A stretch of 64,000 bases of DNA from a virus (lineage: Duplodnaviria; Caudoviricetes), in IMG/VR virus record IMGVR_UViG_3300012665_000817, positions 25,340 to 89,339 of that record; one strand, 5' to 3'. Within the stretch, counting starts at the first letter, position 1; each line of letters opens with the position of its first letter. This document shows, one piece after another, positions 8,007 to 49,772 of this stretch. The notes below the pieces were generated by a model. It had not been told where the DNA came from, ran no database searches, and was given only the letters and a program-made list of their open reading frames with translations. A program made the translations under genes and the position numbers.

Positions 8007-8032
8007 AAAACATGAAAGAGAGACAATAGACA

Positions 8033-10252: not shown

Positions 10253-10254
10253 CC

Positions 10255-22755: not shown

Positions 22756-23235
22756 ATGTGGAAACCAGCTGATAACCTAGAGTGGCAGAAAGATGCATCC
22801 TGCGCTGATCCTAAAAATAAAGAATCTGTTGACTGGTTCTTTTCTACGGATTCAGTAAAGAAATATGCAGCTAAAAATATGTGTTTCGAGTGCCCTGTTA
22901 GATCTCAGTGTCTGCAGTGGGCTTTAGAGCATAGACAAATCTGGGGCATCTGGGGAGGAAGAGATGAAGTTGACATCCGTAGAACTCTATCCGTATCCTA
23001 CAACGGTGAAGAAACAAAAAGAAGAAGAGTACCTAATTGTCCATATTGCACTGCTCGTCCTTCTAAGCTTGATACTTCTATAGAAGAACTACCAAACGGT
23101 GGTAGATGGACAACAGCAAAAATTGTTACATGTACAGAATGTAACTTTTCATGGAGAAGCAGAACAAGTGCAAATGCTATTGAAGCTTATAAAGAAGAAA
23201 AACTACAAAAAACTAAGACAAATAAAAAGAAATAG
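22756..23235 (+). CDS. whiB: WhiB-family Fe-S transcription factor with C-terminal zinc ribbon
   Basis: WQKDASC...C..C.VRSQC..WAL...WGIWGG, followed by CPYC...CTEC. Confidence 0.92.
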   Translation: MWKPADNLEWQKDASCADPKNKESVDWFFSTDSVKKYAAKNMCFECPVRSQCLQWALEHRQIWGIWGGRDEVDIRRTLSVSYNGEETKRRRVPNCPYCTARPSKLDTSIEELPNGGRWTTAKIVTCTECNFSWRSRTSANAIEAYKEEKLQKTKTNKKK

Positions 23236-24733
23236 GGTTTTTTAAATCTATCTCAAAGGGCATGTTTTGATTTAATAAATCTCTTTCTACATTTTCTTTA
23301 AAATACTCGTAGTGTCCTTTAGCATAATCATACATATCAAACTGTATAAGCTCTTCTTTTGCAAGATTAGGATCAATAAGGTTTAAACCAGCTAAAGTCC
23401 ACTTCCAAAGATCATTAGCTCCCCATTGTTCGTCGGAAGCAAATAAAAATGTTGGAATTTTACTTTTTGCTTTTTCAATATAATTTTTTACTGTAGGAGT
23501 TACTAGATTTTCATTCTTGATGTATCTCCAAAATTCGGAGTCTTCTCGACCACCCTGATAATGGAGAACTGTAAAATCTAATAGATTCTCATACATTTTT
23601 ATAATATTGTTATTATAATTTTTAATGTTTGCTTCAGTAACAGTGGTCTCAGGTTTACTTGTTAAATGTTCCAAACAAAACGAGTAAACCTGAGCAATTG
23701 TTGCATGAATAGATGTAGCCTCTAGTGGTTCAATAAATGAACTTGCTAGACCAGTAACTAGACAGTTATTCTTCCAAACTTCTTCTAAACGACCAGATTC
23801 AAACTTAAGATGATTAATTGGTACTATAGGATGTCCCATAATTTTTTCAGCTTCGTCTTGAGCCTCGTCTTCAGACATAAAACTACTACTGTAGACATAG
23901 CCGCAACCTTTTCTACTCGAAAGAGGTGTACGCCACATCCAACCTGATGAAAGCGCTTCTGCTTCAGTCACTGGTTGTATTTTTTCACCTTCTTCATACT
24001 GAACAAGGAATGGCATAGCTCTATCGACAGGAAGATAGTCTTTATATGAGTGCCATTTAATCTCTAACTTTTTAGCTAATATTCTTTGCATACCAGTACA
24101 GTCTACAAAAAAATCTCCCTCTAAAATAGAATCATCTTCAAGTAAGACCCCACTGATATTTCCATTAGATTTTATTTCTACATCTTTAATAATTGAATCT
24201 ACAAATTTAACATTGTAGTATTCAACTAAGTAATCTTTAATATACTTCCCTACTTTAAAAGCATCAAAGTGAAGTCCGTAGTCTCTATTATTTAGGAATT
24301 TATTACTGTTATAAGCTTGACCTGCTGGTGTGCAAAGATAAGCTTTATCTATTCCGTACTCAGAAATAACATAATTAAAAAGATGATCTGGCGAGTTTTT
24401 TGTTGTTACAGATCCTACAACTGGAGCAAAATATGATCCTTTATCTTTTGCCCAGTTTATGTGTTTTAAGGCGTACTTTGGTATAGCATCTGTTTTATTT
24501 ATAAAATCTGCAATGTCCATCTCTTTATTGTTAGGTAGTAATTTTCTATTATTATAAAAAAAGTTTCCACTTAATATATCAATAATCAAACCACTAGAAG
24601 CTTCTCCAGCTCCAATAATCCCGATTTTAGAGGACTCGACAACCGTTATATTGTGTTGATAAGGGTTACTTTGTGAGATTATGAAAGCAGACAGCCACCC
24701 GGCTGTCCCGCCCCCACATATAACTATGTTCAA
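23213..24733 (-). CDS. flavin-dependent (tryptophan) halogenase-family protein
   Basis: GGGTAG FAD motif, GAGEA, K-YALKHINW (RebH K79 position), WMWRTP and FIEPLEATS. TTG start overlapping the upstream TGA. Confidence 0.88.
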   Translation of the reverse strand: MNIVICGGGTAGWLSAFIISQSNPYQHNITVVESSKIGIIGAGEASSGLIIDILSGNFFYNNRKLLPNNKEMDIADFINKTDAIPKYALKHINWAKDKGSYFAPVVGSVTTKNSPDHLFNYVISEYGIDKAYLCTPAGQAYNSNKFLNNRDYGLHFDAFKVGKYIKDYLVEYYNVKFVDSIIKDVEIKSNGNISGVLLEDDSILEGDFFVDCTGMQRILAKKLEIKWHSYKDYLPVDRAMPFLVQYEEGEKIQPVTEAEALSSGWMWRTPLSSRKGCGYVYSSSFMSEDEAQDEAEKIMGHPIVPINHLKFESGRLEEVWKNNCLVTGLASSFIEPLEATSIHATIAQVYSFCLEHLTSKPETTVTEANIKNYNNNIIKMYENLLDFTVLHYQGGREDSEFWRYIKNENLVTPTVKNYIEKAKSKIPTFLFASDEQWGANDLWKWTLAGLNLIDPNLAKEELIQFDMYDYAKGHYEYFKENVERDLLNQNMPFEIDLKNPISFYLS

Positions 24734-25815
24734 TCTTTTTCTTTTTCTTCTTCTTCTAAACTAGACTTCATTAAGCAATAATCTAGATTATTTTTTAATC
24801 TTTCATTACTTGGTTCTAAATCGTAAGCTTGCTGAGCATATTCCGCTGCTTCTTTATAGAGTCCTAGATTGTAGGAAGCTATAGCTGCATAGTCATAGGG
24901 TGCAGCTCCCCAAGCGTCTGCTTCACAAAGATACTCGAGAGGTTTTTCAGTAATAGCTAACGCTTCTTTAGCGGTCTCTAAAGAGTTAGTCCAATCATTT
25001 CTTTCATAATAAAGCTTTGCAAGATCTACCCAAGGCTCTCTGCGACCAGGTGCTTGTATGATTGCTTTTCTAAACCAAATCTCTGCTTCTTCTGGAAGTG
25101 ATTTACCAATAAAACGCATGGATGCGGCACGCTCTGGTGCCCAATGAGCTGTTGGTAGATCTAAATGGCGCTTAAGCTCTCTAGCTGCTTCTTCATTCTG
25201 TCCATAAAAGTACAACTCTCGACCATAATAAAACGCATTGCGATCATTGTATGGATCTTCTTTAACTGAAAGTGCAAGAAGCGGTAAATATTGAGCACGA
25301 GACTTGCTTGGATCAGGGTGGTGATGAGTTTCAAGACCATCTGTCCATTCTTGTTTCTCCTCAATCCCGTAGCTATACAGACACTCGTGAACTGGGTGAC
25401 GCCATCTATAGCCCTTGCGAGCATGGATGTGGTCGTAGCTAAATTCGAGACCAGGAGTTCCATCATCATTAAATGACCAAATATGCTTATATCGTGGTCG
25501 TGTTACTCCTCGACTCCATAGCTCTTCAAGAACTGGTTTCCAGTTAGGAGTAATAACTTCATCCATATCCAAAGAGATACACATGTCAATGTCTTCAGGC
25601 AAAAGTGCTAGTGCAGCATTCCGTGCATCATCAAATCTCCAAGGCATGTTTTTAATACTATGAACTACGATCCCAAGCTCTCTAGCACGTTCTACAGTGC
25701 CGTCTGTTGATCCAGTATCTGCAATCATTAAGTAGTCAGCATCTTTAGATGCCTCGAACCACTTATCGACAAACTGACGTTCATTAAGAGCAATTGTGTA
25801 AATAGCTACTTTCAT
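24730..25815 (-). CDS. GT2 glycosyltransferase with C-terminal TPRs
   Basis: ADTGSTDGT, RFDDARNAAL, DxD motif LDMDE and HPVHE, followed by helical TPR-like repeats. Confidence 0.9.
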   Translation of the reverse strand: MKVAIYTIALNERQFVDKWFEASKDADYLMIADTGSTDGTVERARELGIVVHSIKNMPWRFDDARNAALALLPEDIDMCISLDMDEVITPNWKPVLEELWSRGVTRPRYKHIWSFNDDGTPGLEFSYDHIHARKGYRWRHPVHECLYSYGIEEKQEWTDGLETHHHPDPSKSRAQYLPLLALSVKEDPYNDRNAFYYGRELYFYGQNEEAARELKRHLDLPTAHWAPERAASMRFIGKSLPEEAEIWFRKAIIQAPGRREPWVDLAKLYYERNDWTNSLETAKEALAITEKPLEYLCEADAWGAAPYDYAAIASYNLGLYKEAAEYAQQAYDLEPSNERLKNNLDYCLMKSSLEEEEKEKD

Positions 25816-25817
25816 TT

Positions 25818-26402: not shown

Positions 26403-26428
26403 TTTATCTCTTTTCGTTATATGAGGAT

Positions 26429-27987: not shown

Positions 27988-27988
<1 letters not shown>
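26429..27988 (-). CDS. S8 subtilisin-like serine protease with I9-like propeptide
   Basis: Catalytic triad IIDSG, DGHGTHVA and GTSMASP, plus oxyanion AAGN. N-terminal LTEEEAQKLKEDPRV. No signal peptide. Confidence 0.92.
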
Positions 27989-29777
<1,789 letters not shown>

Positions 29778-29778
<1 letters not shown>

Positions 29779-30020
29779 TATTGACCACCCTCTACTAAAG
29801 AAACTTTTCCTTCATAGCAGCAGTGATCTGCTCCTTCAAGAGTTTCTACAGCTGTATTGTACACACCTTCAAGAAAATCTTCACGACCAGTTGCCCACAC
29901 TACGTCCGAGACTAGTACCGTCTTATTTTCAGAGATATTTTTAATAGTTAAGTTAAGTAAAGGAGCGTTTTCGCTTTCCTCTACTTTCCACTGAAAGTTT
30001 CCTACGGTTTCCATCATCAT
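29778..30020 (-). CDS. hypothetical protein (80 aa)
   Basis: Translationally coupled on both sides. Confidence 0.6.
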
Positions 30021-31750
30021 GGCATCGACGCAATGCTCTTGACGGTGATAGTTCCAACCATATTACTGTGGATTGAGCAGAGATACCCGTAAGTTCCACT
30101 TATACTTGCTGGTACTTGCCAATACAAAGTTCCACTAGTTTTACCTTGAGCACTAGAACCAGTAGACACAACTCCCGCTGTTGTAACGTGAATTAGCCCT
30201 GTGTCGTAGTTTGCTCCTGCAAATCTAATCAGGAAAGGATGACCAGCTACGTTTAATCTAAACCCTATAGTTGTCCCCGAGATTGCATATATTGTTGGGT
30301 TATTTCCGCTGTACTGGTTATTAAAAAGATAAGATGAGGAGCCGTTAGCAGTGACATCTAACATAGTTATTGCAGGATAAGCAAACTCATCGACAGTAAG
30401 TCCAGCAGATGTTGCATCACTAGCTGCACTAAATGTTGTTATTCCCGCTGTTCCAGTCGCACCTGTCGCACCAGTCGGACCAGTTGCACCTACTGCACCC
30501 GTTGGTCCCGTTACCGTGCTTGCTGCACCTGTTGGTCCTGTAGATCCAGTCGGACCTGTAACAGTGCTAGCAGCACCCGTTGCACCTGTTGGTCCTGTTG
30601 GTCCAGTAGCACCAGTAGCACCTGTCGCACCTGTCGCTGAAGCAGAACCTGCTGGTCCCGTTGAGCCAGTCGGACCTTGCGGTCCTGTAGATCCAGTCGG
30701 ACCTGTAACAGTGCTTGCAGCACCCTGTGCACCCGTTGGACCTGTCGGTCCTGCTACTCCTGTGGCACCAGTGGGACCAGTTACGGTAGATGCCGCACCA
30801 GTTGCACCAGTTGCACCAGTTGGACCTGTAGGACCTGGAACTGTGCTTGCTGCACCCGTTGGTCCTGTCGGTCCACCTGATGGGCCTGTAGGTCCCGTTG
30901 GACCAGTTACATTTGACGCAGCTCCTGTTGCACCAGTCGCACCTGTTGGTCCTGTTGGACCAGTTACATTTGACGCAGCTCCTGTTGGTCCTGTAACACT
31001 AGGACCAGTCGCACCTGTTGGGCCAACTGCACCAGTTGCACCAGTTGGGCCAGTAGGTCCACCTGATGGTCCTGTAGGGCCAGGAACAGTTGAGGCTGCA
31101 CCTGTTGGGCCAGTTGCTCCTACTGCTCCAGTTGCACCTGTTGGACCCGCAGGGCCAGTTGGTCCATTTGCTGGGCCTTGCGGACCTGTTGGTCCTGTTG
31201 GACCAGTTGCGCCACTACCAGCATTAGAAACTCCAGAGCCAACAACTGTCCACTCGGATGGGGTTTTTACTTCTAAATTATTTGTTTCTGTATTGAATCT
31301 TAAATAACCTACATCTGCAGTTGCAAGCCGCTGAGCAGTAGTTCCTTTGTCAACATATAAAGTATTGTAGTTTCCTAAAATTGTTTTATTAGTTAGTATC
31401 TGCGCTAGATTTTCTGGTTGGCCAGCGTCATCTTGAGCTATACCACTTGCGCTAAAAGAAACAGTTGATACTGAGGCTCTAACATAAAGAGAGTCACCTT
31501 CATTTACTGGAAACCTAAAAGTTTCAAAAGACTGCCCTAGGCTTAGAGTTATATTGTATCCAATATAGGCGTATTGAGATGGAATTGAAGCATTAGCTGG
31601 TACTACCCAGATGCTAACTTTTGTTAGAGGAGTAGCTACTACAGCCTTACTTGCAGCAATAACAGACACCAGATATGAGGATTGAAACGTCTCTAAAACA
31701 GTATCTGTGTTAGCGGCAGGAGAGGCAACACCTAATCGTATAATTGGCAT
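30017..31750 (-). CDS. collagen-like fibre with C-terminal cupredoxin-like domain (577 aa)
   Basis: G-X-T tract. The C-terminal domain contains GHPF and YLCSIHSNM (C-x2-H-x2-M). Confidence 0.85.
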
Positions 31751-31759
31751 CTTGCCCTC

Positions 31760-34700
31760 CTATGCCTGTGCTTCAGACCATGATAGCTTAGCTGATGAAA
31801 GTGTTGGGTTACCTGTCAAACGAGATACCGCAATAGTAAGGATATCAGGTCCGTCAGGGAAAATCGAGTCTCCACCAAGAATTGAGTTTGAAAGCTCGAA
31901 CAGAGAGCTAACATCTACAGTTGTTGTTCCATCACTGGCTCCACCACCTGGAGCAGCTAGGAAGTTATAAACCTGAACTCCACCAGAAACGGTGTCCTGA
32001 GCAGTGTGCTCGATGATTTGAGTAAGTGATGGAGAATCTACTCCAATAAAGGACAAGTTATTAAGACGTGTATTTAGAAGAATCTTAACTTCAATAAGCT
32101 GATTAGTAGATACGCTAATCTCCTTAAGACGAAGCTGCATTCGATTAATAACGTCTCGATCTCCAAGCTTTCCTGTCAAACCAGATGATACCGATGGGCT
32201 CAAGCGGATTGATAGAAGAGGCTGGTAGTTAGGGCCAGAGGTGTTATTTGCAGATCCATCTGGATACAAGAAGTATGTGTACTGAGTATTACCTTGACTT
32301 GTAAAGTTGATAACTTGAGATATAGCAGCACCTGGCTGAGCAATACTAGCCACTGTCTGCGAGCCAGTAACTGTGTATGTAAACACTGTATCGCTCACTC
32401 GGGTAACTGTGAAAGGTCCATTTACCAAGTTTGTGGCTGTTAAACCATAGATTCCTACATACATTCCTGTAGTTAGATTATGGTTAGTTGCTGTTGTCAC
32501 GGTGATTGTTGAACCTGAACGCTCAACTGTAGCTCCAACAGTAATAGTTGCATTAAGAGGAGTTAAGTGGATCAAGTTAGCTGAGTTAACAAAAGCTCTG
32601 TATTTAGCGTTGTTAGTTAGATTTGATAATGTATTAGAGCCCACCACCTGAGTAGCTGGGTTTAACGAGTTAACACCAAGCAAACCATTTGCTCCCAGTG
32701 ATTGGAACTGTAGGACTTCTCCTGTAGTAAATCCGTGGCTTTGAACAGTCATTAAATCTGTTGTCAAGCTAATTCCAGCAGATGAGAAGGACTTTGCAGT
32801 AGTTCCAGCAATGTTAAGAGTCTGGCTTGATCCTGTAAAGAGGTAAGCATTATCATCATCAAAACGGCCATCCATCATTACCGAAGTACCCCAGTGGAAC
32901 AGAGATGGAATGTATGTAGGGTTATCGTATGTAACTACTTCATAACGAGCTGGCATGTTACCAGAGCGTAAGTATGACTCAAACAAGTTGTTGTTGTGGA
33001 CAAACTCGTGTACATACTGAACCTGACCATCGGTTGTCTTGAAGCCGAAGCGAATCTTACCCGCACCGTACCAAGAGTAGTCAATGTAGGCCATCTGAAT
33101 ACGACTTAAGTCAAGGTTATATCCTGTTGCACCAGTTCCATCGCAAGGATCGATTGACCAATCCTCTTGAGGTATGCGAGTGTTTACAGTTTTTGTACCG
33201 ATAATGCCTGACTTAGCAGGGACAAACGAGTGGATTGTTGTAGTTCCAACGCTCGAGAGGTTTACAATATCAGCAGAATCTGGAGATGCTTTAAGCTTGA
33301 AATTATTGTTATCGATAAGAGATACATAATATGTACGGCCGTTGATAAGACCACCAATTGGCTCTCCATCAATAGAGTTATATGAAACTGGTAGTAGATC
33401 ACTAAAACCATGACCAATAATGTTAAACACATCGGTTGTTGTGTTGACAGCTGTTGAAGGATTAAACTCTTTTTCTGCTCCAGAAGAACCCTTGTACTCT
33501 GGTCGCACAGATAGACGAGTCTGACTTGTAATTTCTACAACTCTATATGACTGTCCACGCATAACAAGGTAGTCACCGACTGCCAACTGAGCTTGGAAGC
33601 TAGTGTTTGTTCCAAATATAACTTCGTTTCCTTGAAGTGCAGCTAAAGTTCCAGCTATTTGCTGAGTAGATGAACGACGTACAGCATAGATCTTTTGTCC
33701 ATCGTACTCAAAGAACATACCGTTCTGGTCATCAAACATTCCAGTGCGTACAGCTCCATTTGTCCAATTCTTTACATAGAACTGAGGGAATCCATATGCT
33801 CTATCTTGTGCAATTGCACCATTTGCAGAGATTCTAAATGTTGTAAGATCTACCACAGTTACTGAGAATTCTCCGTTGTAGACAGTACTTACATCTCCAA
33901 AAGAGTCAGTTGCTTCAGATACCTTAATAATCAAACCAGACAATAGACCGTGTGGTCGACGTGTCTTACACTCGATAGTAGTATTACTAAACTTTATCAT
34001 GCTCTCAAGGTCAATTGATGGCTTGAAGTTGATACCGCAAGAGGTCTGAATACCTTTACCTGACTGGTAACGGAAATACTTACGAGTCTGACGAATAATC
34101 TGTGCGTTCGATGTACCAGCTCCAGCAGACATTTCCACTCCACCATCGAATGGACGGTGTAGAGAGTAGCCTTCTGGACGAACATATACGAATGTAGGAT
34201 ATGAGTATGAGACAGAGCTGTATGCAGAAGCATATGGACGATCAACAGAAATCTGTGTATCAGATCCAATAGCTGTAATACGACGAATAATTGGTCCCAC
34301 TGGGATAGTCTCTGTCAAACTAAAGTAAGGAATAGACCCTACAGTACCTTGAGTTGAGATTGCTACAGCATTTGCATTAGATATTGCATCTGCAGCAGAT
34401 GAGTGAAGAGTAATTGTATTTGCATCAATTGCACGAACAAAGTAGTAATATTGATCAACAAGTGGAGCTGGTGACACGCCGCCATTTGCAGAGTAAACAA
34501 CTGTATCTCCTGTTGAAAACCCGTGAGAGGTCTTTGTAATTCTGTTATTTGCAGTATTAATATCTGCAGAGACAAAGTTAATATTTACTACAGTGTTAGG
34601 TGGGAATAGGCGGAAACGGTCTCCTACTTTAAGAATCTTAGAGAAAGAAGTACCAAGTCCATTAACAAGAACTGAGCCAGAAACAGTGGTGACTGTACCT

Positions 34701-37594: not shown

Positions 37595-37628
37595 TTAACT
37601 CTCCTTTGTTTTTCTGTTTATCCAGCTA

Positions 37629-40571
37629 TTAAAGTCTTTGAATTGTTAGGAAACCTGCGCCACTGTTAGCACTGTTAGCGTTTGATTGGTTAGCTCCATT
37701 ATTAATAGATCCACCACCAGAACCACAACTAGACCAAGGTCCAGCTCCACCACCAGAGTAGCCTCCACCGCCACCAGCACCGTTTGAACCGCCGCCAGCT
37801 CCGCCGCCGCCAGCACCAAATCCACCAGCATAACCTGGACCGCCTACACCACCATTAATAAATGATTGTCCTGGCCAGCTACCACCGCCGTTGTTGAAGA
37901 GACCTCCGCCTCCTCCTGGTGTTGAGCTAGAAGGTCCACCATTACCACCACCTGCTTGTCCCCAAGCGCCTGGACGTCCTGCAGTTTGGTTGCCATAAGA
38001 ATCACGGCGTTCGTCACCGTTAGGTGCTCCACCGCCACCACCACCAGAAATAATTAGTGGGTTGTTGCTGATGTCGGTGATACCTGTTCCTCCACCACCA
38101 GATCCATCATAAAAATCGTTTTGACCTGGCTGTCCAACAGCAATCTTTAGAACTTGACCCTTGGTTAGTGTAAAGTCTCCACGGTTTCCAGCACCATAAC
38201 CACCACGCTGTCCCCAGTTTTGACCCCAGCCGCCAACGGCTCCGTATGTTTGAATTCTATAAGTTCCATCTTCTGGAACTGTCCAAAGCATAATTCCATT
38301 TACTGACATATTTAAATATGTATTTGCCCAAGCTGGGTTACCTATACCAGCTCTTGCCTGTGCAATATTTGGACCATTTCTTCCACCAGCTCCACCGCTG
38401 TTAAACTGTGCACTAGTGAAATCATAAAGTCTTGGTGCAGGGTTGATCTGGAAGGTAATTACTTGGAAACCTTGCAAACCACCAACGTCTGTTGCTCTTA
38501 CAGTTACTTGACGACCTGGAGCATTAATAACTTCTGTAGGAGTTCCTGAAATGACACCGTTAGATGTATTAAAGTTAAGACCTGTAGGAAGTGTTCCACT
38601 TGAAATTGCCCATGTGATTGGAGCAACAAGGTTTACAGTTGTTGCAGTAGTCGGGGTAATTGGTTGAGTTGCAAAGATATTTTCTCTAGAAATAGTAGCT
38701 GGATTGATAGATCCAATAGTTGCATTAATTGTGTAAGTATGGTTCTGGAATGCTGTTAAACCAGTAGCATCTGTTGCTGTAATGACAACTTGTCGTCCTG
38801 TAACTACCTCTACTGGGGTTCCAGATACAGAACCTGTATTCGTATTAAGAGTCAGACCATTAGGTAGAACTCCACTGGTAACAGCAAATGTAATTGGAGC
38901 TGTTAAACCTGTTGGTGTTGCAGTAGTTGGGGTTATTGGAGTACCACGGTCTACTGTAACAGTTACATTCTTTGGAGAAAGCTCTCCAGTATTCTGATTT
39001 AAAGTAAAGTTGTGCTGGTCATATCGTGTCTGAATGAAGTAGAAGTCTTTAATCTCATCGGCTGCATTTACCCCGAAACGACCATCTGCTGGATATTGAT
39101 ATTCCAACATATCTAAAGCTTCAAATCCGTTATCTTTGACATGGAAGATATCTTTATCTAAAGAAATTGCAATTTTTGTAAAAGACTGAATACCAGTTCC
39201 ACCAGATATGGATGTGATTACTGATCCATTAGGTAGAGGCTTTAATGTGAAACTGTAGTTGTTTGAGACTCCCTGACGGAAATATGTATCAATAAAATAA
39301 GTTGTATTGTTAGTTAGACCAGATGCGGCAGATCCAGTGCTATTATAGAACACCATGGCATTTGCATACCAATCAAGATCTACTAAACTTGTAACTGTTA
39401 CGTTAGATCCACTATAAGTTGCATTTGTTCCAACTGTTCCAGCCGTGTTAGTGGCGTCAAAGACTTGAGCAGCTCCCTGTAAAATATCTATGCTTGTCTG
39501 TGTTACAGGATTGACGTTGTTACCAGAAAAAGTACGAGCTTGGTTAGCAAGCTGAAATGTTCCAGAGATGGATGCTGTAATTGGTATTACATCTCCATCT
39601 GGAACAGCACTCACTGTAAAAGTTGATGTTGATGTTCCTAAAGAACTTGTGCTTTTTAGAAATACAACTCCTCTAGGATTTGATAAGAAATATCCAGCGC
39701 CACCAGTTATAGCGTAGTAAAGAGGTGTGCCGAGTGGTCTCCCAAGAAAATTCTCAGTGCTGTGAGCTACTGTAATAGTGTTATTAACTACACTTACACC
39801 AGAGATTGTGCTAACTACTCCTCCAGCAACTCCAGAGTTTGACCAGTCAATATTAATTGATGAAAGAGTGTTGGATCCATCAAAGGTCTGAGCAGTAGCT
39901 GAGTTTGTAGAGTCAAAAGACTTTGCAACTGTGTTTGACGCTGGAAAATCTTGAGAAATAGTTGAGTTAAGATTGAGGAAGTAGAACGGCGTATTTATCT
40001 TAAAACCATGAGAGCTTTCTGTGGTAACTGTAAGCACAGAGGTAGTACCGTCATCTGTAACAATACCAGAAGAGTCAGCGATACGAAGCTGCGAGCCTTG
40101 GAAAAACTCTCCTGTAATAATAGAAGAATACAAATCTTGAATAGCAGATGTACCAATCTGATTTGCCTTGCAAAGATATGTAAAAGTTGTTGGATTTGGG
40201 ATGGAGTTAATAATATAAGCACCATCTGCAGTAATAGATTTAGTTCCTGTAACCGAGATAGGAATACCTACAGATAACCCATGGTCAAAGTCGGTAACTA
40301 CAGTGATCTGACGAGTACCTGCGTTTGTGGTGATTGATGCAATATTTGGAATTGTAGTATCACCGCTCTTAGAAAAGAACGATGGAGTATTGTTAATAAG
40401 CTCAACGGTTTCCCATTTTGTTGGCTGCAGACCGTATTCAAAGTCTGTATCGATGAGGTTTTCAGGCTGCGAAATACGGAGTTTCGTTACTGGATCGATA
40501 AACTCCTTTGGAAAGGAGATTTCTCCTCCTGTACCTGATCCGCTACTGCTACCGCCTAAATAACCTGGCAT
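37629..40571 (-). CDS. virion/adhesin protein (980 aa) with putative Ig repeats and C-terminal glycine-rich domain
   Basis: N-terminal KLRISQPENLIDTDFEYGLQPTKWE. Two He_PIG-like units (SG.LP.GL..N...G.(V/I)SGTP). Polyglycine C-terminus. Confidence 0.8.
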   Translation of the reverse strand: MPGYLGGSSSGSGTGGEISFPKEFIDPVTKLRISQPENLIDTDFEYGLQPTKWETVELINNTPSFFSKSGDTTIPNIASITTNAGTRQITVVTDFDHGLSVGIPISVTGTKSITADGAYIINSIPNPTTFTYLCKANQIGTSAIQDLYSSIITGEFFQGSQLRIADSSGIVTDDGTTSVLTVTTESSHGFKINTPFYFLNLNSTISQDFPASNTVAKSFDSTNSATAQTFDGSNTLSSINIDWSNSGVAGGVVSTISGVSVVNNTITVAHSTENFLGRPLGTPLYYAITGGAGYFLSNPRGVVFLKSTSSLGTSTSTFTVSAVPDGDVIPITASISGTFQLANQARTFSGNNVNPVTQTSIDILQGAAQVFDATNTAGTVGTNATYSGSNVTVTSLVDLDWYANAMVFYNSTGSAASGLTNNTTYFIDTYFRQGVSNNYSFTLKPLPNGSVITSISGGTGIQSFTKIAISLDKDIFHVKDNGFEALDMLEYQYPADGRFGVNAADEIKDFYFIQTRYDQHNFTLNQNTGELSPKNVTVTVDRGTPITPTTATPTGLTAPITFAVTSGVLPNGLTLNTNTGSVSGTPVEVVTGRQVVITATDATGLTAFQNHTYTINATIGSINPATISRENIFATQPITPTTATTVNLVAPITWAISSGTLPTGLNFNTSNGVISGTPTEVINAPGRQVTVRATDVGGLQGFQVITFQINPAPRLYDFTSAQFNSGGAGGRNGPNIAQARAGIGNPAWANTYLNMSVNGIMLWTVPEDGTYRIQTYGAVGGWGQNWGQRGGYGAGNRGDFTLTKGQVLKIAVGQPGQNDFYDGSGGGGTGITDISNNPLIISGGGGGGAPNGDERRDSYGNQTAGRPGAWGQAGGGNGGPSSSTPGGGGGLFNNGGGSWPGQSFINGGVGGPGYAGGFGAGGGGAGGGSNGAGGGGGYSGGGAGPWSSCGSGGGSINNGANQSNANSANSGAGFLTIQRL

Positions 40572-40653
40572 TAGCTAATACCTCTTTCGCTGCGTAAAGA
40601 ATGTACATGTAGATTAACACTATATACATGTTCTGATTTCTTGTAATTATACA

Positions 40654-41304
40654 TTAAATACCTAACCACCAAGATGTAGAAACAGCTAAGGAGCCCTGAC
40701 CACCTGTCGGGCCTGTTGCTCCTATAGATCCACCAGCTGCGGCTATATAAACTCCATTGTAGTAAACATAGGTCTTAGCATCGTTTGTATTAAACCAAGC
40801 ATCACCATTTACTGATGTTTCAATATCTGGTTGAGTAGGGCTAACAATAAATTTTCCGACTGGACCTGTTGGACCAGTAGGACCTGCAACTTCAGATTGT
40901 GCACCTGTAGGACCTGTTGGTCCTGTTTGTCCACGAGGACCAGTTGGGCCTTGAGGACCAGTTACTTGAGAATCTGCTCCTGAAGGACCAGTAAATCCTC
41001 TTATACCTTGTGCACCCGTAGGTCCTTGTGGACCTGTTGGACCTTGCTGTCCAGTTGGTCCTGTAGGTCCTTGAGGACCTGCAACAGTTGAGTCTGGACC
41101 AGTCGGTCCCTGAATACCTTGAGCACCTGTAGCGCCTACTGCTCCTGTAGGTCCAGTAGCACCAGCAACACCTTGCGGACCAGTTGGACCAGTTGGAGCT
41201 ACTCTTTTAGCTTCCCAAACTGTCCCAGACCACACCCAAGTTTGATTATTTACGGTAAATTCTTCGCCAATTACTACGGGCGTAGGAAAATCTATAGCTG
41301 CCAC
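40654..41304 (-). CDS. short collagen-like fibre (216 aa)
   Basis: GTG start with GAGGAG SD. AIDFP N-terminal module, G-X-Y tract, GDAWFN...YVYY module and WWLGI end. Confidence 0.8.
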
Positions 41305-41335
41305 TTGGTGTCTCCTCTCTTAGTCTTTATCTATT

Positions 41336-41503
41336 TTACTCTTGAACAGGCTCTTGTATTCCAGAATTCTTCATACCTACATACGCATCTGCCCAATTAA
41401 CTGCGGCAGGAAGCGACTCCCAAGGGCCACTCTCGTCGATGATATTGTCACCGTAAAGAATCTGAACCTTAGGTCCATCTTCAAGAATTATGTATGAAAA
41501 CAT
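41336..41503 (-). CDS. 55-aa hypothetical protein (below track cut-off)
   Basis: AAGGAG SD. MFSYIILEDG...GPWES...NWADAY...QE* fills the gap. Confidence 0.65.
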   Translation of the reverse strand: MFSYIILEDGPKVQILYGDNIIDESGPWESLPAAVNWADAYVGMKNSGIQEPVQE

Positions 41504-41518
41504 TATATCTCCTTATTG

Positions 41519-42436
41519 TCATATCGAGTAAGCAATCTTCCCTGATGCACCTACCGCTAAGGCAAGAGAGTTATCTATATACACACCGTTAATATTAGTT
41601 GTATTAAAACTAGATGTTCTTTGTAGCCACGACACTCCGTCAAAAGATGTAGCTAACTTACCAGTAGCTCCTCCAGCAAGATATGTCCCCTCTGGGGATA
41701 CAGAAACAGATCTAATACTAGAAAGTCCAAAGGTGCTAACAGGAAAAACTTGAGTCCATGTATTTCCATTTAAAGAGTTTGCTACTTTCCCAGAATCTCC
41801 TACCGCAATAAACTTCCCACTGGTTGTCGCAGATACGGCATTAATAATAGAAGTACCAAAACTAGAAGTCCTTTGAGTCCAGTCAACTCCATTAGTAGAA
41901 GTTGCAAGTTTTCCATCATACCCTACTGCAGTTATTAAGCTTGGTGCTGCCCATACGCTGTTGATAAAAGAGGTACCAAAACTAGAAGTCCTTTGAGTCC
42001 AACTAATTCCGTCAATTGAAGTCGCTAGTTTTCCAGAGCCGCCAACAGCAACCCAGAGGGATGCCGACTGAGAATAAGAAATACCTAGAATAGTGCTTGC
42101 GCCAAAAGAAGAAGACCTTAGTGTCCAATTAATCCCGTCTGGGGACGTTGCTAATTTTCCAGAGCTACCACCGATTACATATAGATTATTTCCATAACTT
42201 ACTGCATATATATTGCTATCGAAAAAACCACTCGTCCTCTGTGTCCATGTTTGGGTGTCTGTAGATGTTGCTAATTTTCCAGAGTTGCCTACAGCAATAT
42301 AAAAACTGCTTGAAGGATTACGAATAATTGCATTAATGTTAGTCAAACTAAAAGAGGTATCTACAAGTTGAGTCCACGTTACAGGTGTATATGCTGAGAT
42401 CAGTGTGGCGTGAAAAGAGTGACTAGCAAATATCAT
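41519..42436 (-). CDS. 7-bladed beta-propeller (BNR/Ycf48-like) adhesin
   Basis: Seven W(T/L)Q R(T/S)S.F....I.....AVG.SGK(L/V)A.S repeats of about 41-43 aa. Confidence 0.8.
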   Translation of the reverse strand: MIFASHSFHATLISAYTPVTWTQLVDTSFSLTNINAIIRNPSSSFYIAVGNSGKLATSTDTQTWTQRTSGFFDSNIYAVSYGNNLYVIGGSSGKLATSPDGINWTLRSSSFGASTILGISYSQSASLWVAVGGSGKLATSIDGISWTQRTSSFGTSFINSVWAAPSLITAVGYDGKLATSTNGVDWTQRTSSFGTSIINAVSATTSGKFIAVGDSGKVANSLNGNTWTQVFPVSTFGLSSIRSVSVSPEGTYLAGGATGKLATSFDGVSWLQRTSSFNTTNINGVYIDNSLALAVGASGKIAYSI

Positions 42437-44313
42437 TATGCTGTCAAGTTTCCGCTAAGTAGCCACTCGTTGGTTGAGATTTTAATAAGGGAACCTACAG
42501 CATATCGAGCTTTTGTCGTAAAGCGAGATCCTTCTGTTCTAACAAAAACACCTGGAGATCCTTCTACTCTTACTTGACCAACACCAAGCTGAGTAAATAA
42601 AATCTGAGTTCCTACTGCAAATGTATATCCTCCAGCGCCATCCAATGGAACTGTGATTACTGTTACTGAGGAACTGTTCATTTTAACTATTGTTGATATA
42701 TCTGATGCACTTAAAGTAGTAGATGCTAAATATGTTCCTTGAGGGATGTTGTATGTTGCAGGTCCAGTAGCACCTGTTGGGCCTGTTACTGCAGGTCCTG
42801 TTGGTCCAGTAGCTCCTTGAGGCCCTGTTGGTCCTTCAACTGTGCTTGCTGGTCCTGTAGCACCAGTTGGTCCTGTTACAGACGGACCAGTTGCACCAGT
42901 TGGTCCAACAATCTGACCTACACTTGCCCAGTTAAGTCCGTTCCATACATACAAGAAACCATTGGCTGTAACTACATAAGCATCATTTAAAGAGTTACCA
43001 GATGCTGGAAGGTTTACTACCTGTGGAACGCTTCCTTTAACATTGATGGAAGTTCCTTGTGCACCTGTAGGACCTGTTGGTCCCACTTCTCCAGATCCAA
43101 GAACTAAGTTCCAAGAAGCATATGTGTTTCCATCTCCATTTATTTTATCTACTAACAATGTAATAGATAAGGAGTTAATTACAGTAATAACACCTTCCAT
43201 GAAGTTGCTTGGAACTGCGCTACTTGCTAAACGTGCTCTAGTTCCTACAGTAAAAGCGTCAACTTTATTCACAACGAAAGTTTTTATACCGCCAGTACTA
43301 ATACTTAGATTACTTGTAGAGGTAACACCAATATAGCTTGCACCTTGTGCACCAGTAGGTCCCGTTACAGATGGTCCTGTCGCACCTGTGGGACCAGTTG
43401 AACCTGTAGGTCCCGTTACATTGCTTGCCGCACCCGTTGCACCTGTAGGACCAGTAGGTCCTGGAATAGTTGAGGCTGCACCTGTAGGACCTGTAGATCC
43501 TGTTGCACCACGAAGACCAGTCTCACCTGTGGGTCCAGCTACACCTGTCGCACCAGTAGATCCTGTAGGCCCAGTTGGACCACCAGAAGGACCAGTTGGA
43601 CCTGAAGCTCCTGTAGGCCCTGTAACACTTGCACCAGTTGCACCTGTCGGGCCTTGTGCACCAGTTGCACCAACGAAACCTCTAGCACCTGTAGGTCCTG
43701 TTGGTCCCTGTGCACCAGTAGCACCTGTAGCACCTACTTCACCTTGTGAACCCGTAGCTCCAGTCACACCTTGTCCTTGAGGGCCTGTTACACCTCTTGG
43801 ACCTTCAATACCTTGAATTCCTTGCGGACCTGTTGGGCCAAGTCCACCTGTAGGTCCTACAACAGATATACCCTGTGGACCAGTTGCACCAGATACGCCT
43901 CTAGGACCAGTCGCACCTGTAGGTCCAGTTGCACCTGTAGGTCCAACTACTGTGCTTGCAGCTCCCGTAGGACCTGTTGCACCAGTTGGACCACCTAAAC
44001 CAATATTAGAAGAAGCAGACTCCACCCAGTAGCTATCGTAGTAAACATATATTTGACCAGTTTCAGCATTAAACCAAGCGTCTCCTACGCTTGGAGAAGC
44101 TGGAGGAGTTACTGCTGAAATACTAAAAGAACCACGGGCTCCCGTAGGTCCTGTAACTGTGCTTGGAGCTCCTTGTGGTCCAGTAGCACCAGTTGCACCT
44201 ACTACTGTTGAGACAACTAAGTTCCAAGCAGTTCCATCCCACTTCCAAGACTGAGCACCAGATGTAAAAATCTGATTCAGTGTTGGCGAATTAGGAAAAT
44301 CAATAGCTGGCAT
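42436..44313 (-). CDS. collagen-like fibre (625 aa)
   Basis: [15 protein letters not shown] start, G-X-T tracts and a C-terminal beta domain ending [16 protein letters not shown] overlap with the propeller gene. Confidence 0.85.
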
Positions 44314-44322
44314 TTTTTATAT
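44268..44322. repeat. 55-bp perfect direct repeat, copy 1
   Basis: aaatctgattcagtgttggcgaattaggaaaatcaatagctggcattttttatat, identical to 44986-45040. Confidence 0.9.
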
Positions 44323-44326
44323 TCTC

Positions 44327-45031
44327 CTAACTCAGTAACGATTCGTATGTAATTTGAATAAGAATTTTATCGTTGGAGTTAAAAAGAAACGGAGTATCTT
44401 GAGTTACAGCAACACCTTCAACAAAAATAGATGACTGTGAGTGCATATATAGCTCTACACGATCTGTTACTCCACCATTAAATATTGCAGTTCCAAAATA
44501 ATTAGTTCCCGGTCCTTCGTCACGCATAACTACCTGTCCTACTGGTTGGAAGTTTTCAATGACTCCTGGAGTAGGTAGAGATACGGAGTAAGTTCCAGAA
44601 CCACGGCTAAACCCAGTAGTACCAGCAATAATACGAATTTCTCCAACAATTGTTGCACCAATATTTACATATCTTCCAGTAATACTTCCATTACCAAGAT
44701 TAGGGTTAGTAACACTACCTCTTAAAATAGGCGTGTATGTTGTCCACGGAGTAATTGAAAAGCTACCAGTTGCTCCAGTTGCACCAGTAGGACCGGGTAC
44801 AGTTGAACCTGGACCAGTTGGTCCAGTAACACCTAATAGACCCTGTGGACCTGTAGGACCAGTTGCACCAATAGCAGTTGAGTCGCTACCAGCAGGTCCC
44901 GTTGGACCTGTTGGGCCTTGAGCACTAGTACGAACTAAACGCCAAGCGGTTCCATTCCATTTATATGTTTGGATGCCGTTTGTGTAAATCTGATTCAGTG
45001 TTGGCGAATTAGGAAAATCAATAGCTGGCAT
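44327..45031 (-). CDS. short collagen-like fibre with receptor-binding-head-like C-terminus (234 aa)
   Basis: Same N-terminal 15 aa as 42436-44313. Short G-X-T tract and a W.TYTP...GRY..IG...SLP head domain. Confidence 0.8.
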
Positions 45032-45040
45032 TTTTTATAT
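44986..45040. repeat. 55-bp perfect direct repeat, copy 2
   Basis: Identical to 44268-44322, offset by 718 bp. Confidence 0.9.
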
Positions 45041-45047
45041 CCTCTCC

Positions 45048-48000
45048 TTAGACAGCATTCGCAATGAAGGAGCCATTAATATAGATGGCAGAAGCTGATG
45101 ATAGTGTAACTGGTGCAGCACCTGTTAGTGCAGTTCGTACACCATTTGTTCCCATATAGAACAGGTCAATAAATGCTGATCCAGACGCATTATTAGCTAC
45201 GATATTGTAGCTAGCACCAGAGAAGTTTCCAGCAACATCGACAATTCCAGTGTATACATAAGAGAAACCAGTTAGAGGAATAAATGGAAGTGTCAATCTA
45301 TATTGACCAGTACCTACTGCAACAACGTTTGAGAAGTCAATCTTGATATTGAAGATTACATGATCTCCATAACGTACATATCTTCCAGATGTAGGTGTTC
45401 CAACAAAATTTAACCCTGTTCCAGACCATACTGGTGTGTATGTTGTAGTTGCAGGTTCTCCTACAGGTCCTTGAACACCAGTAGGACCAGTTGGTCCAAT
45501 CTTATCTACAATATCTATAACTCCACCGATAGCAAGATCTGTAACATCTTGATAAATAATCTGGCTAGGAGCATTTAGAGGCACGTCGTAAACAATGACT
45601 TTGTCTGGGCTGGATGTGTTACGACCAGCTGTTGTACTGTTGTTGCTTGTGCCTGAAACATTTGAGGTAGATCCAGAACTTATTCGAAGTGCGAAAGAGT
45701 TAGTGACCAAAACATTAGTAACATCAAAGTACATTCTTTCACCACGAACTGCGGTGAGTGTTGGGTTATCTCCAAGTAGACCAGAGACAGTAAACGCACC
45801 ATTATCGCCTGTAGAAGTAATGTAATAAGTTACACCACCTCTAGGACCAGTGGGACCTGTTCCACCAGTAGGTCCTGTAACAGTTGATGCCGCACCAGTT
45901 GGGCCAGTCGGACCTGTAACGCTAGGACCAGTTGGACCAGTAGGTCCTACTTCAGTAGACGCAGCTCCAGTAGGACCTGTAGGTCCAGTAACTGAAGGAC
46001 CTGTAGGTCCTGTAGGGCCAGGAACAGTTGATGCCGCACCAGTTGGACCCTTTGGACCAATCAATGCGCCAGCTTCAATCCAACCATTTGTGGCTGTGTA
46101 AATATAGATCGTGTCTTCAGCGTAAATTACATAGAAGTCACCAACAGAACCTGTAGTTGATCCAGCTCCTGCCGCGAACTCTGCATATGTGTTGTAGTAA
46201 CCCTTAGCTTGCGAGCCCACTCCTTGAGGTCCAGTTGGACCTGTAACGATAGGACCCGTTGCACCAGTAGATCCTGTAGGCCCAGTTGGTCCAGTTATAG
46301 ATGCACCAGTTGGTCCAGTTACACCTTGACCTCCTTGAGGTCCAGTTGGACCTGTTGCTCCACCAAACTCAGAAGTTCCTACTTCAACCCAATAGTTATC
46401 GTAGTAAAGATATACAGCGCCAGTTTCAGTTTCAAACCAAGTATCTCCCGGAGTTGCTCCACTAGGTGGTGTTGAAAATGCTGGTACAAACTCTCCCTGC
46501 ATACCAGTAGGTCCTGTGGCACCAGTAGGTCCTGTTGGACCAGTAGGTCCAGTAACACCAGTTGGTCCAGTAACAGTCGATGGTGCACCAGTAGCGCCTG
46601 TGGCTCCTGTTGGTCCTGTAGGACCTGTAAAACCTAAGAAACCTTGAATACCTTGTGGGCCAGTTGGTCCAGTTATAGATGCACCAGTTGCACCTGTTGG
46701 TCCAGTGATACCTCTATACCCTGTAGGGCCAGTTGCACCTGTTGGACCTGTAACAGTTGATGCCGCACCAGTTGGTCCTGTTGCACCTGTTGCACCAGTT
46801 GGTCCTACAGGAGCTGCCCCTGTCTCAATCCAATATGAATCATAGTAAACATAAGTTTTTCCATTAGCAGTGTTGAACCAAGCATCACCTGCATCTGGAC
46901 TTGCTGGTGGAGTGTCAGAAACAATTGCAAAGTTACCAAGCTCGCCTGTTGCACCTGTTGGGCCAGTAGCACCAGTAGCACCAGTAACTGAGGTTCCTTG
47001 TGGACCAGTAGGTCCTTGAATATTTCCTACGTTTACCCAAGTAGAAGATGATGCTGACCAAACATAAAGAGAGCCAGATACAAGATAACCATCTCCAGGA
47101 TTTCCTGTTGGATGTGCGGCTTGTAGTTCACCAAGAGTTGCATACGAACCAAGAATTGTTACACCAGTACCTGAAGCACCAGTTGGTCCAGTTATAGACA
47201 TACCTGTCGCACCAGTAGCACCAGTAGCACCAGTAGCACCAGTAATACCTTGAATACCTGTATTTCCAGTTGGTCCAGTTACACCTGTCGCACCAGTAGC
47301 ACCTGTCGCACCTTGAATACCTTGTGCACCTGTTGGACCAGTAGCTCCAGTTATACCTTGAATACCTTGTGCACCAGTAGCACCAGTTGCACCCGTGATG
47401 CTATTGCCTTGTGCACCTGTTGCACCTGTAGGACCAGTAGGTCCTGCAACACCTGTTGCACCTGTAACGCTGTCACCTTGTGCACCTGTTGCACCTGTAG
47501 CACCTGTTGGTCCAGTTACTGTTGAAGGCGCACCCGTTGCACCTGTTGGTCCTGTTGGTCCAGTTAATCCTGGACCTGTTGGTCCTTGTGGACCAGTCGC
47601 ACCAGCACCTGTTGGTCCTGTAGGACCTGTTGGTCCAACCACATTTGAGTCAGCACCTGTTGCGCCAACTGGACCCGTTGGGCCAGTAGCACCTGTAGGA
47701 CCAGCAACTGTAGACGCAGCGCCTGTAGGACCTGTTACTGCTGGGCCTGTTGCACCAGTTGCACCAGTTGCACCAGTTGGTCCAGTTACACCTTGAATAC
47801 CTTGAGGACCAACATCACCAGTTCTTGCAAAGGTGATGATAATGTCTTCATTATCTGAGAATGATGTTGCAAGACCGCTTACATAAGAAACTGGAACTGT
47901 GAAGTATCCACTGTTTTCTGTAATCGAATTTGTAATAGCAAATAATGCAAAGTCAGAAGAGTTTGTTTTATTGCTAATTCGGAAGTGACCCTTGATTGGG

Positions 48001-49772
48001 CTTGTTGAATCATCAATAGTACGAAGGAACTGTTGTACGTCAATTGCACCATCAGTCTCGTCATCAATAAATAAGTTTGTTGCAAGTTGAAGATCTAAAT
48101 TATTAAAACGAAGCTTTCCAGATCCTGGATCTGTTTCTGTAGCATTAGCTGTAAATGTGTAGTCAAAGCTTGCGCCACCAAAATTACCGATTGGTCCTGT
48201 TGCACCTGTTGCACCTGTTGGGCCAGCTACGCCAGTAGGACCTGTAGGACCAGCAACATTGCTTGCAGCACCAGTTGCACCTGTTGGTCCAGTATTTCCT
48301 GTATCACCCTTGACACCCTGAGCACCAGTAGCACCTGTAGCGCCTGTAGCACCAGCACCTGTTGCACCTGTTGCACCTGTCGCACCTGTAGGGCCAGCTA
48401 CACCTGTTGCACCTGTAGGGCCAGCATTACCTGTAGGTCCAATTCCACCAGTTGCACCAGTTGCACCTACTGGACCAGCGACTGTGCTTGCCGCACCTGT
48501 AGCACCAGTTGGACCTGCAGCACCAGTAGCACCTGTAGCGCCAACATCTCCTGTGTCACCCTTAACGCCTTGTGCACCTGTAGGACCTGCAACACCAGTT
48601 GCACCTGTCGCACCCGTTGCACCAGCGCTTCCAGTTGCACCAGTTGCACCTGTTGCACCAACAGCACCTGTTGGACCTGTAACTTGAGAAGGTGCACCAG
48701 TAGCACCTGTCGCACCCGTTGCACCAGTTGCACCAGTTGCACCTGTCGGGCCTTGTGCACCAACATCACCTGTGCGAGCAAAAGTAATGATGATGTCATC
48801 ATTTGCACTAAAGCTATCTGCTAAACCAGATACATATGCACAATTGACTTTAAAATAACCAGTATCTTCTGTAACAGAAGTGATTGTAAATAAACCAAAA
48901 TAGTTTGCATCAGACTTACGAGCGATGCGGAAGTGTCCCTTTAGTGTGCTTGTTGAGTCATCAATTGTGCGTAAGAAAGATTGGAGATCGATTGCTCCAT
49001 CTGCTTCATCATCGATGAACATGTATGTAGCAGCTGAAAGACTTGCATTGTTAAATTTAAGTTTTCCAGATCCTGGATCAGAGTCTGTTGTGTTGGTAGC
49101 AAAGGTATAGTCAAATGTTGCTCCACCAAAACTACCTGCTGGACCAGTTGCACCAGTTGGGCCTGTTACGGTAGAAGCTGCACCCGTCGCACCTGTTGCA
49201 CCAGTTGGGCCAACTGCACCAGTGGGACCTGTTACTGTGCTTGCAGCTCCTGTTGCACCAGTTGCGCCTGTAGGACCAGTTACGCCGGGACCAGTTGCAC
49301 CAGTTGCACCTGTAGGTCCCGTACTTCCAGTTGGCCCACCTGCAGGTCCCGCTGGTCCTGTTGGGCCTTGTGGTCCTTGAGATCCAGCCAATCCACGAGG
49401 GATATCTGTTCCTAAAGGAGATGTAGTTACAGGCTCAACCGTGTCAAGTTTTGTAATATCTACACTTGATGCGTTCCCTACTGGTAAATAAAATCTAAAA
49501 GAATATGGGCGAGCGCCACGAATACGAACTGTTGCGGTGTAATACCAACCGCGAGGACTTAAATCTAAATCATCTGTACATGGAAGACTAACTGTAAACT
49601 GACCAGTAGCGTTAAGTGTTACAGTAATTGGAGTAGAAAGAATTGTTGCATTATTTGCATCTTCAATACGACTAGATGGCGTAAATGTAACTGTTCCAGA
49701 TGCAGCCAGACCAGAGCTCTTTAGGTATTGCCCAAAGACCGTCCTTACGCTGACATCATTAGAATAGGGCAT
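45048..49772 (-). CDS. very long collagen-like fibre (1574 aa)
   Basis: N-terminal actinophage fibre-anchor-like domain (GTVTFTP...L...G.F.V.LP.TDD...P.GW.Y). Multiple G-X-T tracts are separated by globular inserts, including a duplicated domain of about 125 aa. Confidence 0.85.

Follow-up and report, generated by a model that had tools for sequence, protein, structure and literature searches.

A Caudoviricetes gene run joining Gly-X-Thr collagen-like fibres to a putative SgtA-type glycosyltransferase

We describe a run of fifteen co-oriented minus-strand genes in a 64,000-nucleotide stretch of viral DNA (Duplodnaviria; Caudoviricetes), below called the window, which covers bases 25340-89339 of the 89-kb IMG/VR virus record IMGVR_UViG_3300012665_000817 (completeness 67%). 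The run holds six collagen-like fibre genes of the Gly-X-Thr type and ends with genes for an S8 protease, an S-adenosylmethionine (SAM) methyltransferase, a glycosyltransferase (GT) of family 2 (GT2) with tetratricopeptide repeats (TPR) and a flavin adenine dinucleotide (FAD) halogenase, and we are concerned above all with the GT and its probable action on the fibres. According to the open reading frame (ORF) listing, the fifteen genes extend from 49772 to 23213, 14 of them encode at least 80 aa, and the junctions measure -4 to +34 bp with the single exception of an 82-bp gap. The 26.5-kb co-oriented run of the initial annotation is thus confirmed by the ORF listing and junction lengths, as are its six fibres, its propeller and its four terminal enzymes by Pfam matches, repeats and catalytic residues. 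The name operon given there agrees with the tight gene packing, but promoter and terminator scans of 21000-56000 find sites no more frequent than in shuffled sequence, so it is the packing that carries this term. The WhiB-like gene at the end of the run, together with the nearest deposited relative, Actinomycetia phage DSL-LC01, points to a freshwater actinobacterial siphovirus. All features are collected in Table 1, and percent identities given below for the GT, the halogenase, the S8 protease and the giant proteins are relative to the window protein.

Table 1. Genes of the fibre run and its two boundary genes, in window coordinates
Feature	Coordinates	Strand	Family match or remark
WhiB-like gene	22756..23235	+	convergent with halogenase; marks a conserved boundary of the module
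Flavin-dependent (tryptophan-type) halogenase, 506 aa	23213..24733	-	Trp_halogenase (PF04820) E 7e-86; last gene of the run
GT2 (GT-A) + TPR glycosyltransferase, 361 aa, SgtA type	24730..25815	-	Pfam GT2 + TPR
Cation-dependent-type class I O-methyltransferase, 194 aa	25818..26402	-	Methyltransf_24 (PF13578) E 3e-14
S8 subtilase, 519 aa	26429..27988	-	Peptidase_S8 (PF00082) E 1.4e-33; phrog_9158 E 4e-72
col596, collagen-like fibre protein	27988..29778	-	Pfam Collagen E 2.4e-16
orf80, 80-aa acidic protein with Cys-Cys pair	29778..30020	-	no family match; between two collagen genes
col577, collagen-like fibre protein	30017..31750	-	Pfam Collagen E 8e-17
GRD1944, 1944-aa giant virion-type protein	31760..37594	-	Pfam ALK_LTK_GRD E 1.6e-9
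GRD980, 980-aa virion-type protein	37629..40571	-	Pfam He_PIG E 1.9e-19
col216, short collagen-like fibre protein	40654..41304	-	Pfam Collagen E 1.6e-12
55-aa ORF, fifteenth gene	41336..41503	-	small hypothetical gene in same position of DSL-LC01
Asp-box (BNR-type) beta-propeller, 305 aa	41519..42436	-	start overlaps col625 stop
col625, collagen-like fibre protein	42436..44313	-	Pfam Collagen E 2.3e-21
col234, short fibre protein	44327..45031	-	Pfam Collagen E 1e-3, under cut-off
col1574, 1574-aa collagen-like fibre protein	45048..49772	-	Pfam Collagen E 1.7e-48, 9 stretches
Phosphoesterase gene	49886..51139	-	co-oriented, upstream boundary; DSL-LC01 counterpart annotated calcineurin-like phosphoesterase

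All collagen matches (Pfam Collagen, PF01391) of the 89-kb record are confined to the six fibre genes, five of them above the cut-off and col234 below it. On the whole, these genes hold 477 Gly-X-Y triplets in runs of at least four, the longest run having 22, and Thr occupies the Y position in 291 of the 477 (61%), with Pro at X in 203 (43%) and Ala in 167 (35%). The N-termini are of three types, one with a ten-letter motif, one reading MPxxRLG and a third in col1574; they are of the tail-fibre or tail-collar kind, and the fibre proteins match tail-fibre, tail-collar and virion-structural PHROGs. The largest, col1574, has 207 triplets over 26 runs and is built from a tail-fibre-type N-terminus (phrog_14726 'tail fiber protein', E 1.4e-14), two copies of a globular insert of about 120 aa and a C-terminal knob, its C-terminus matching phrog_677. 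In col234, 15 triplets are followed by a C-terminal globular domain, with matches to the N-terminus of phrog_3449 'tail collar' and to phrog_13144; its N-terminal motif is shared by col625, which has 78 triplets (Thr at Y in 43) and tail-fibre PHROG matches of E 1e-45 to 1e-49. Triplets make up 54% of col216 (tail-fibre PHROGs, E 1.7e-40), and col596 joins an MPxxRLG N-terminal domain to 71 triplets, 43 of them with Thr at Y. Judged from these features, the run appears to be an accessory fibre module serving host recognition, whose products would be present in the virion.

The GT, the only GT2 of the record, lies in the same single gene run as all the collagen matches, 2.2 kb from col596. Its N-terminal domain matches PF00535 with 24.7 bits (cut-off 23.3), and the two Asp of its DxD motif, D83 and D85, are invariant across 69 homologues. 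The AlphaFold (AF2) model made from the alignment of these 69 (predicted local distance difference test, pLDDT, 97.5) has a GT-A fold, with helical repeats at residues 176-360, where Pfam matches TPR at 248-340. The best full-length PDB matches of the model are the peptide glycosyltransferases SunS/ThuS (PDB 7msn, 7msk, 7msp), with a Foldseek E of 1.6e-15 and a query TM-score (TMq) of 0.64, and with VIA Z of 22.1 (root-mean-square deviation 2.6, 257 residues) and 21.3 (292 residues), against at most 18.1 for structures having GT-A only; the TPR domains of GmaR and OGT are also among the matches. The family is large: a scan of 1.84 billion representatives gives 937 relatives at E 1e-30 or better, and homologues at least 67% identical fill the top of a 5.8-billion-protein search. 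Some members are fused to Methyltransf_24/RMNT_CmcI methyltransferase domains or to further GT domains. In two related loci, L052 and L069 (10001-12260), the GT is longer (579-584 aa), with a small methyltransferase-like ORF of another kind behind it, and L052 has glycine-rich fibre genes in place of collagens.

We then consider how constantly the GT is accompanied by collagen genes. At least 594 IMG/VR loci carry the GT, and neighbourhoods were counted in the best 80 (54-84% identity). Among the phage loci with at least 8 kb of upstream sequence, 32 of 39 have a same-strand collagen ORF upstream of the GT, and a collagen ORF downstream is seen in only 4 of 41. The 13 IMG/VR loci found via the halogenase share one order: giant, collagen(s), S8, in some more collagens, methyltransferase, GT, halogenase and an opposed WhiB. 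The partnership is not confined to phages. In the best 80 of 221 bacterial loci (GT 43-59% identity), a collagen ORF, defined as same-strand with at least 15 triplets, is near the GT in 44, with a gap of at most 300 bp in 29, and these collagens have Thr in 56% of Y positions. The bacteria concerned include Clostridia, Bacilli, Actinomycetota, Planctomycetota, Burkholderiaceae and Bacteroidota; the clostridial homologues beside Gly-Pro-Thr collagens are 43-51% identical to the window GT. As Pfam Collagen matches occur in just 4 of 14 whole control genomes, the enrichment of collagen genes near the GT is very large. As a check set beforehand, the initial annotation had asked whether the enzymes occur independently of collagen genes across relatives; this proves true for the halogenase, and largely untrue for the GT, apart from a few relatives. 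A further pair is seen in a metagenome-assembled genome of Candidatus Nanopelagicales, the likely host order (L154, a 242-kb contig, 8001-10791), where a GT 50% identical to the phage enzyme has a collagen-like ORF of 58 triplets 1 kb downstream; this may be what is left of a prophage, the origin of the phage gene, or the host's own counterpart.

The methyltransferase adjoins the GT in the window and often elsewhere: of 93 related viral loci, 36 encode it, and in these it lies upstream of the GT 29 times and downstream 7 times, the distance being within 100 bp in 28. Its AF2 model (pLDDT 84) has the fold of cation-dependent O-methyltransferases, and the Foldseek matches (E 5e-10 to 1e-7) include TrmR, CCoAOMT/COMT, MycF and MeT1 (TMq 0.68), the last being a mycobacterial sugar O-methyltransferase. 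D122, D124, H125, D150 and D151 are invariant, as is appropriate for a Rossmann SAM fold with acidic metal-binding residues. O-methylation of a fibre glycan by this neighbouring enzyme is plausible; for the O-methylated fibres of the initial annotation, the adjacency to the GT, the O-methyltransferase fold and the methyltransferase domains fused to other GT-family members stand in favour, but a sugar acceptor is not distinguished by them from other acceptors.

Because a GT built like SgtA, the collagen glycosyltransferase of Clostridioides difficile, stands at the end of a block of Thr-rich collagen genes, the phage probably coats its own fibres with sugar. Glycosylated Thr-collagen fibres, as the initial annotation proposed, are well supported by comparison, namely by the SunS/ThuS fold of the modelled GT, its SgtA-like architecture and its conserved collagen partnership in phages and bacteria. 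What is observed is the gene content, the folds, the catalytic residues and the gene partnerships kept across relatives; from this we infer that the phage builds glycan-sheathed Gly-X-Thr collagen fibres, in which the GT O-glycosylates Thr at Y and the methyltransferase methylates a sugar hydroxyl, and we give this reading a probability of about 0.62. The fibres would be trimeric collagen-like stalks in which small globular knobs break up the Gly-(Pro/Ala)-Thr repeats, and the two giant glycine-rich-domain virion proteins and the Asp-box propeller accompany them. Late in infection, the soluble GT2-TPR enzyme would take a nucleotide sugar of the host, most likely uridine diphosphate N-acetylglucosamine (UDP-GlcNAc) by analogy with SgtA, and transfer it to Thr at Y, its TPR half holding the extended repeat peptide as in the SgtA/BclA3 system; the adjoining methyltransferase would then probably methylate a hydroxyl of the sugar. 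The resulting glycan sheath could stabilise triple helices that lack hydroxyproline, and could mask or tune the fibre surface.

Several observations weigh against this. Seven of the 39 phage loci are without a nearby collagen gene, in a few relatives the phosphoesterase gene immediately precedes the GT and collagen genes are lacking around it, and the distant GT homologues of jumbo phages (e.g. PaBG) have unrelated genes as neighbours. The co-occurrence in phages partly reflects shared descent, since the 80 loci counted all come from a single broad lineage. The window GT is likened to SgtA through the published description of that enzyme's size and domains, and the phage group is known here from sequences and models. 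For the methyltransferase, the fold fits catechol, CoA-ester or RNA O-methyltransferases equally well, and pairwise BLAST with the methyltransferase domains fused to GT homologues is not significant, which limits the argument from fusions to the level of the Pfam family. In the literature, the GTs of freshwater actinophages have been ascribed to DNA or cell-wall modification (PMC10202952). Finally, the 90-kb record of L069 (68% complete) has the GT and no Pfam collagen match. This last case would also suit a GT that glycosylates other virion proteins, such as the capsid or tail tube, and not, or not only, the collagen fibres; virion glycosylation has reportedly been described for some mycobacteriophages, work by Freeman et al. 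2023 being cited elsewhere for it. We regard this as improbable, since the collagen partnership of the GT family far outweighs any other neighbourhood signal and SgtA itself acts on Gly-Pro-Thr repeats (PMC7157674).

Turning from glycosylated fibres to the other enzymes, the halogenase appears catalytically intact from its sequence and is a lineage-specific addition. It aligns with PrnA (E 3.5e-56) up to residue 434 of 506, the free-tryptophan binding module of such enzymes belonging to the C-terminal part, has the FAD motif GGGTAGW (GxGxxG) at residue 7, and places K86 and E338 at PrnA K79 and E346; its WxWxIP motif reads WMWRTP, with Thr for Ile. It occurs in 22 of the 93 related loci, 17 of which have it less than about 100 bp from the GT, and at least four versions stand beside the GT: those 57-92% identical after it, one of 29% between methyltransferase and GT, those of 32% and 23% before it, and one of 48% before it with the methyltransferase after the GT. 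That such divergent versions (23-92%) directly adjoin the collagen GT on either side is the one point in favour of a halogenase acting on Trp or Tyr of the fibres, in their globular knobs or termini, by which the virion would carry halogenated, glycosylated and methylated collagen fibres. We consider this quite unlikely; if true, it would be the first case of a viral structural protein halogenated by an enzyme. The possibly halogenated fibres of the initial annotation have no more than adjacency behind them. Viral halogenase loci at greater distance (75 loci, 30-46% identity) have a collagen gene nearby in only 2 cases and the GT in 1. Among these distant loci, L189, L191, L194-L196, L213; L201, L203, L206, L209, L211, L212, L216, L219-L221, L224, L242 and L253 have homologues of S8 (40-47%) or of a giant (30-42%) within about 10 kb of the halogenase, without collagen or GT. 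The collagen-like ORFs near distant halogenases, L190:3787 and L225:1151, both without GT, are poor in Thr (3/28 and 5/185 triplets), in contrast with the 56-61% beside the GT, on a sample of n=2.

The S8 protease has its triad D142/H187/S445 in subtilisin order and the oxyanion residue N251; a signal peptide is not evident in its sequence, and an N-terminal extension of about 120 aa resembles a propeptide. It is found in 18 of the 93 loci, 0.6-4.9 kb upstream of the GT, and in L012-type loci it is flanked by collagen genes. The phrog_9158 family to which it belongs is common in T4-like cyanophages within structural regions, with cyanomyovirus homologues 28-36% identical, and in Sf-FR1 a gene of the family adjoins a homologue of the giant protein; our literature search gave no usable cyanophage virion proteomics for the family. 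The protease too looks like a lineage-specific addition, and a role in fibre maturation, as a virion enzyme or otherwise can be assigned to it only weakly. The proteolytically matured fibres proposed initially are not upheld beyond the adjacency seen in one lineage, and S8 is absent from DSL-LC01.

It may also be supposed that the fibres are unmodified and that the terminal enzymes, host-directed or auxiliary, simply happen to close a late transcription unit: the GT would modify phage DNA, glycans of the cell wall or other targets in the host, the halogenase would use a free small molecule as other phage halogenases do, and the protease would degrade host proteins. The rarity of collagens and GT beside distant halogenases is in line with this, as are the known cyanophage halogenase VirX1, the treatment of the halogenase as auxiliary in the DSL-LC01 paper, the DNA or cell-wall roles proposed in the acI phage paper (PMC10202952), and the fact that the GT stays beside WhiB even where fibre genes are missing between GT and phosphoesterase (L039, L053). 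Set against it are the recurrence of the GT-collagen pair across several bacterial phyla at gaps of at most 300 bp, a fold shared with peptide glycosyltransferases having a TPR substrate-binding half, and the position of S8 between collagen genes in relatives. We find a purely host-directed role unlikely on balance and retain the glycosylated fibres.

The small gene orf80 leads to one more possibility. Subtilisin-type leader proteases and Trp halogenases occur in clusters for ribosomally synthesized and post-translationally modified peptides (RiPPs), and S8, the SunS-like GT, halogenase and methyltransferase could form such a cassette, tailoring a small peptide, e.g. orf80, in the manner of glycocins or halogenated lanthipeptides. 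The nearest solved folds of the GT are indeed glycocin glycosyltransferases, and orf80 is without a family match. Yet orf80, the sole small candidate for a bacteriocin-like precursor near the GT, is shared by no loci beyond the three closest (L005-L007), and L008-L015 retain the four enzymes without it; genes for a transporter or for immunity are lacking, and the conserved partner of the GT family is a collagen gene, not a short peptide. Such a cassette is hence highly improbable, and the collagen fibres remain the preferred substrate. In the close relative L006 (1558-3409), five tandem small ORFs absent from the window lie between collagen genes, the first of 109 aa and the other four (133-136 aa) clear paralogues, which indicates a hypervariable insertion point in the fibre module.

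Besides the fibres, the run encodes further virion-type proteins. The two giants exist as annotated initially; the term adhesin is a mere label, because they match 'virion structural protein' PHROGs and carry glycine-rich domains. GRD980 combines two He_PIG Ig domains with a glycine-rich domain at its C-terminus and matches phrog_22713 and phrog_5838 'virion structural protein'. GRD1944 has an ALK/LTK-type glycine-rich domain at residues ~200-460 and matches phrog_5838 at E 1e-138; it is 54% identical to the DSL-LC01 giant, and over the C-terminal 800 aa it shares 38-41% identity with cyanomyovirus proteins annotated 'virion structural'. In the propeller, GKLATSxDGxxWT units (S-x-D-G-x-x-W Asp-box) are read in the sequence, with weak matches to DUF6242 and the F510_1955 glycosylhydrolase family; the homologue in DSL-LC01, 45% identical, is annotated 'PSII assembly factor'. 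The fibre protein col577 joins an MPxxRLG N-terminal domain to a C-terminal domain with a CxxHxxM motif, which matches phrog_677 and the C-terminal part of phrog_9158, S8 corresponding to the N-terminal part; this common match is what had suggested a link between the two. Its C-terminal ~110 aa (window 30020-30400, minus strand) contain AGHPF ... CSIHSNM, a spacing resembling type-1 copper (amicyanin-like) ligands, with Pfam Copper-bind at E 0.046 only. A cupredoxin link between col577 and S8 was rejected, as direct comparison of col577 with a cyanophage S8 protein gave no shared domain.

On the opposite strand, at 2155-11760, are a tape measure, two minor tail proteins and one tail fibre, followed downstream by DNA polymerase, helicase, exonuclease and a Sak4-like annealing protein. 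A separate tail module is thus present there, but as a siphovirus-type tail-tip set, for which the initial wording of a complete tail and baseplate was too strong. The run may form a second appendage or a coat, as the initial annotation supposed; what the sequence gives is that its proteins match tail-fibre and virion-structural families. As for the boundaries of the run, the WhiB-like gene opposes the GT or halogenase in 49 of the 93 related loci and also in DSL-LC01, and in L036, L039, L040, L045, L053, L059, L073 and L081 the phosphoesterase precedes the GT by ~0.7 to 2.4 kb. Neither a flavin reductase, nor a UDP-galactopyranose mutase, nor a second GT2 was found in the 89-kb record (67% complete).

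If the fibres are glycosylated, a very abundant group of freshwater actinobacterial phages, to judge from the IMG/VR loci with the GT, would build sugar-coated host-recognition fibres, and collagen O-glycosylation, known from spore surfaces, would extend to virions. This would offer a testable explanation for the stability of hydroxyproline-free Gly-Pro-Thr triple helices, and would change the annotation of 'auxiliary' glycosyltransferases and halogenases in such phages. The GT-collagen pair across bacterial phyla further suggests that Thr-glycosylated collagen-like surface proteins are far commoner than the few studied spore formers. Our literature search found no paper combining phage, collagen-like protein and TPR glycosyltransferase.

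Among known systems, DSL-LC01 (OQ999401) is the syntenic one: phosphoesterase, collagens, propeller, collagen, glycine-rich giant, collagens, halogenase, GT (60% identical) and opposed WhiB follow one another as in the window. It differs in having neither S8 nor a homologue of the window methyltransferase in the module, and in a halogenase only 23% identical and placed before the GT. This halogenase (L001:25678-27246) is without the second Trp of WxWxIP and has Asp at the position of PrnA E346, so its activity may differ. In the DSL-LC01 paper (PMC10611076) it figures as an auxiliary metabolic gene, and the collagen genes go unmentioned. The cyanophage halogenase VirX1 (PDB 6qgm), found among the PDB matches, likewise comes from a phage, belongs to the Trp_halogenase family and has its catalytic Lys and Glu intact; in the window and its relatives, the halogenase gene adjoins the putative collagen GT in at least four divergent versions and positions. 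SunS/ThuS share with the modelled GT a GT-A domain and a helical-repeat, peptide-binding half, over up to 292 aligned residues, and act on a polypeptide acceptor; however, they are only 13-17% identical in sequence and S-glycosylate Cys of small helical bacteriocin precursors. The closest analogy is to C. difficile SgtA, whose 358 aa divide into GT-A (1-260) and TPR (262-358), whose gene adjoins bclA3 and which in vitro transfers beta-O-GlcNAc from UDP-GlcNAc onto Thr of Gly-Pro-Thr repeats (PMC7157674). In both cases a soluble enzyme of ~360 aa has an N-terminal GT-A and a C-terminal TPR part, and its gene lies beside, and co-oriented with, Gly-Pro-Thr collagen-like genes, with Thr at Y abundant in the window as well. 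The differences are that the phage genes form a fibre module instead of a sporulation locus, that methyltransferase, halogenase and subtilase accompany the GT, and that the candidate substrates are six tail-fibre-type proteins in place of BclA: their N-termini match phage tail-fibre and tail-collar PHROGs in a phage genome, and a BclA-type exosporium N-terminus or spore context is not seen. By this analogy, the system may be regarded as a phage version of the SgtA/BclA3 kind.

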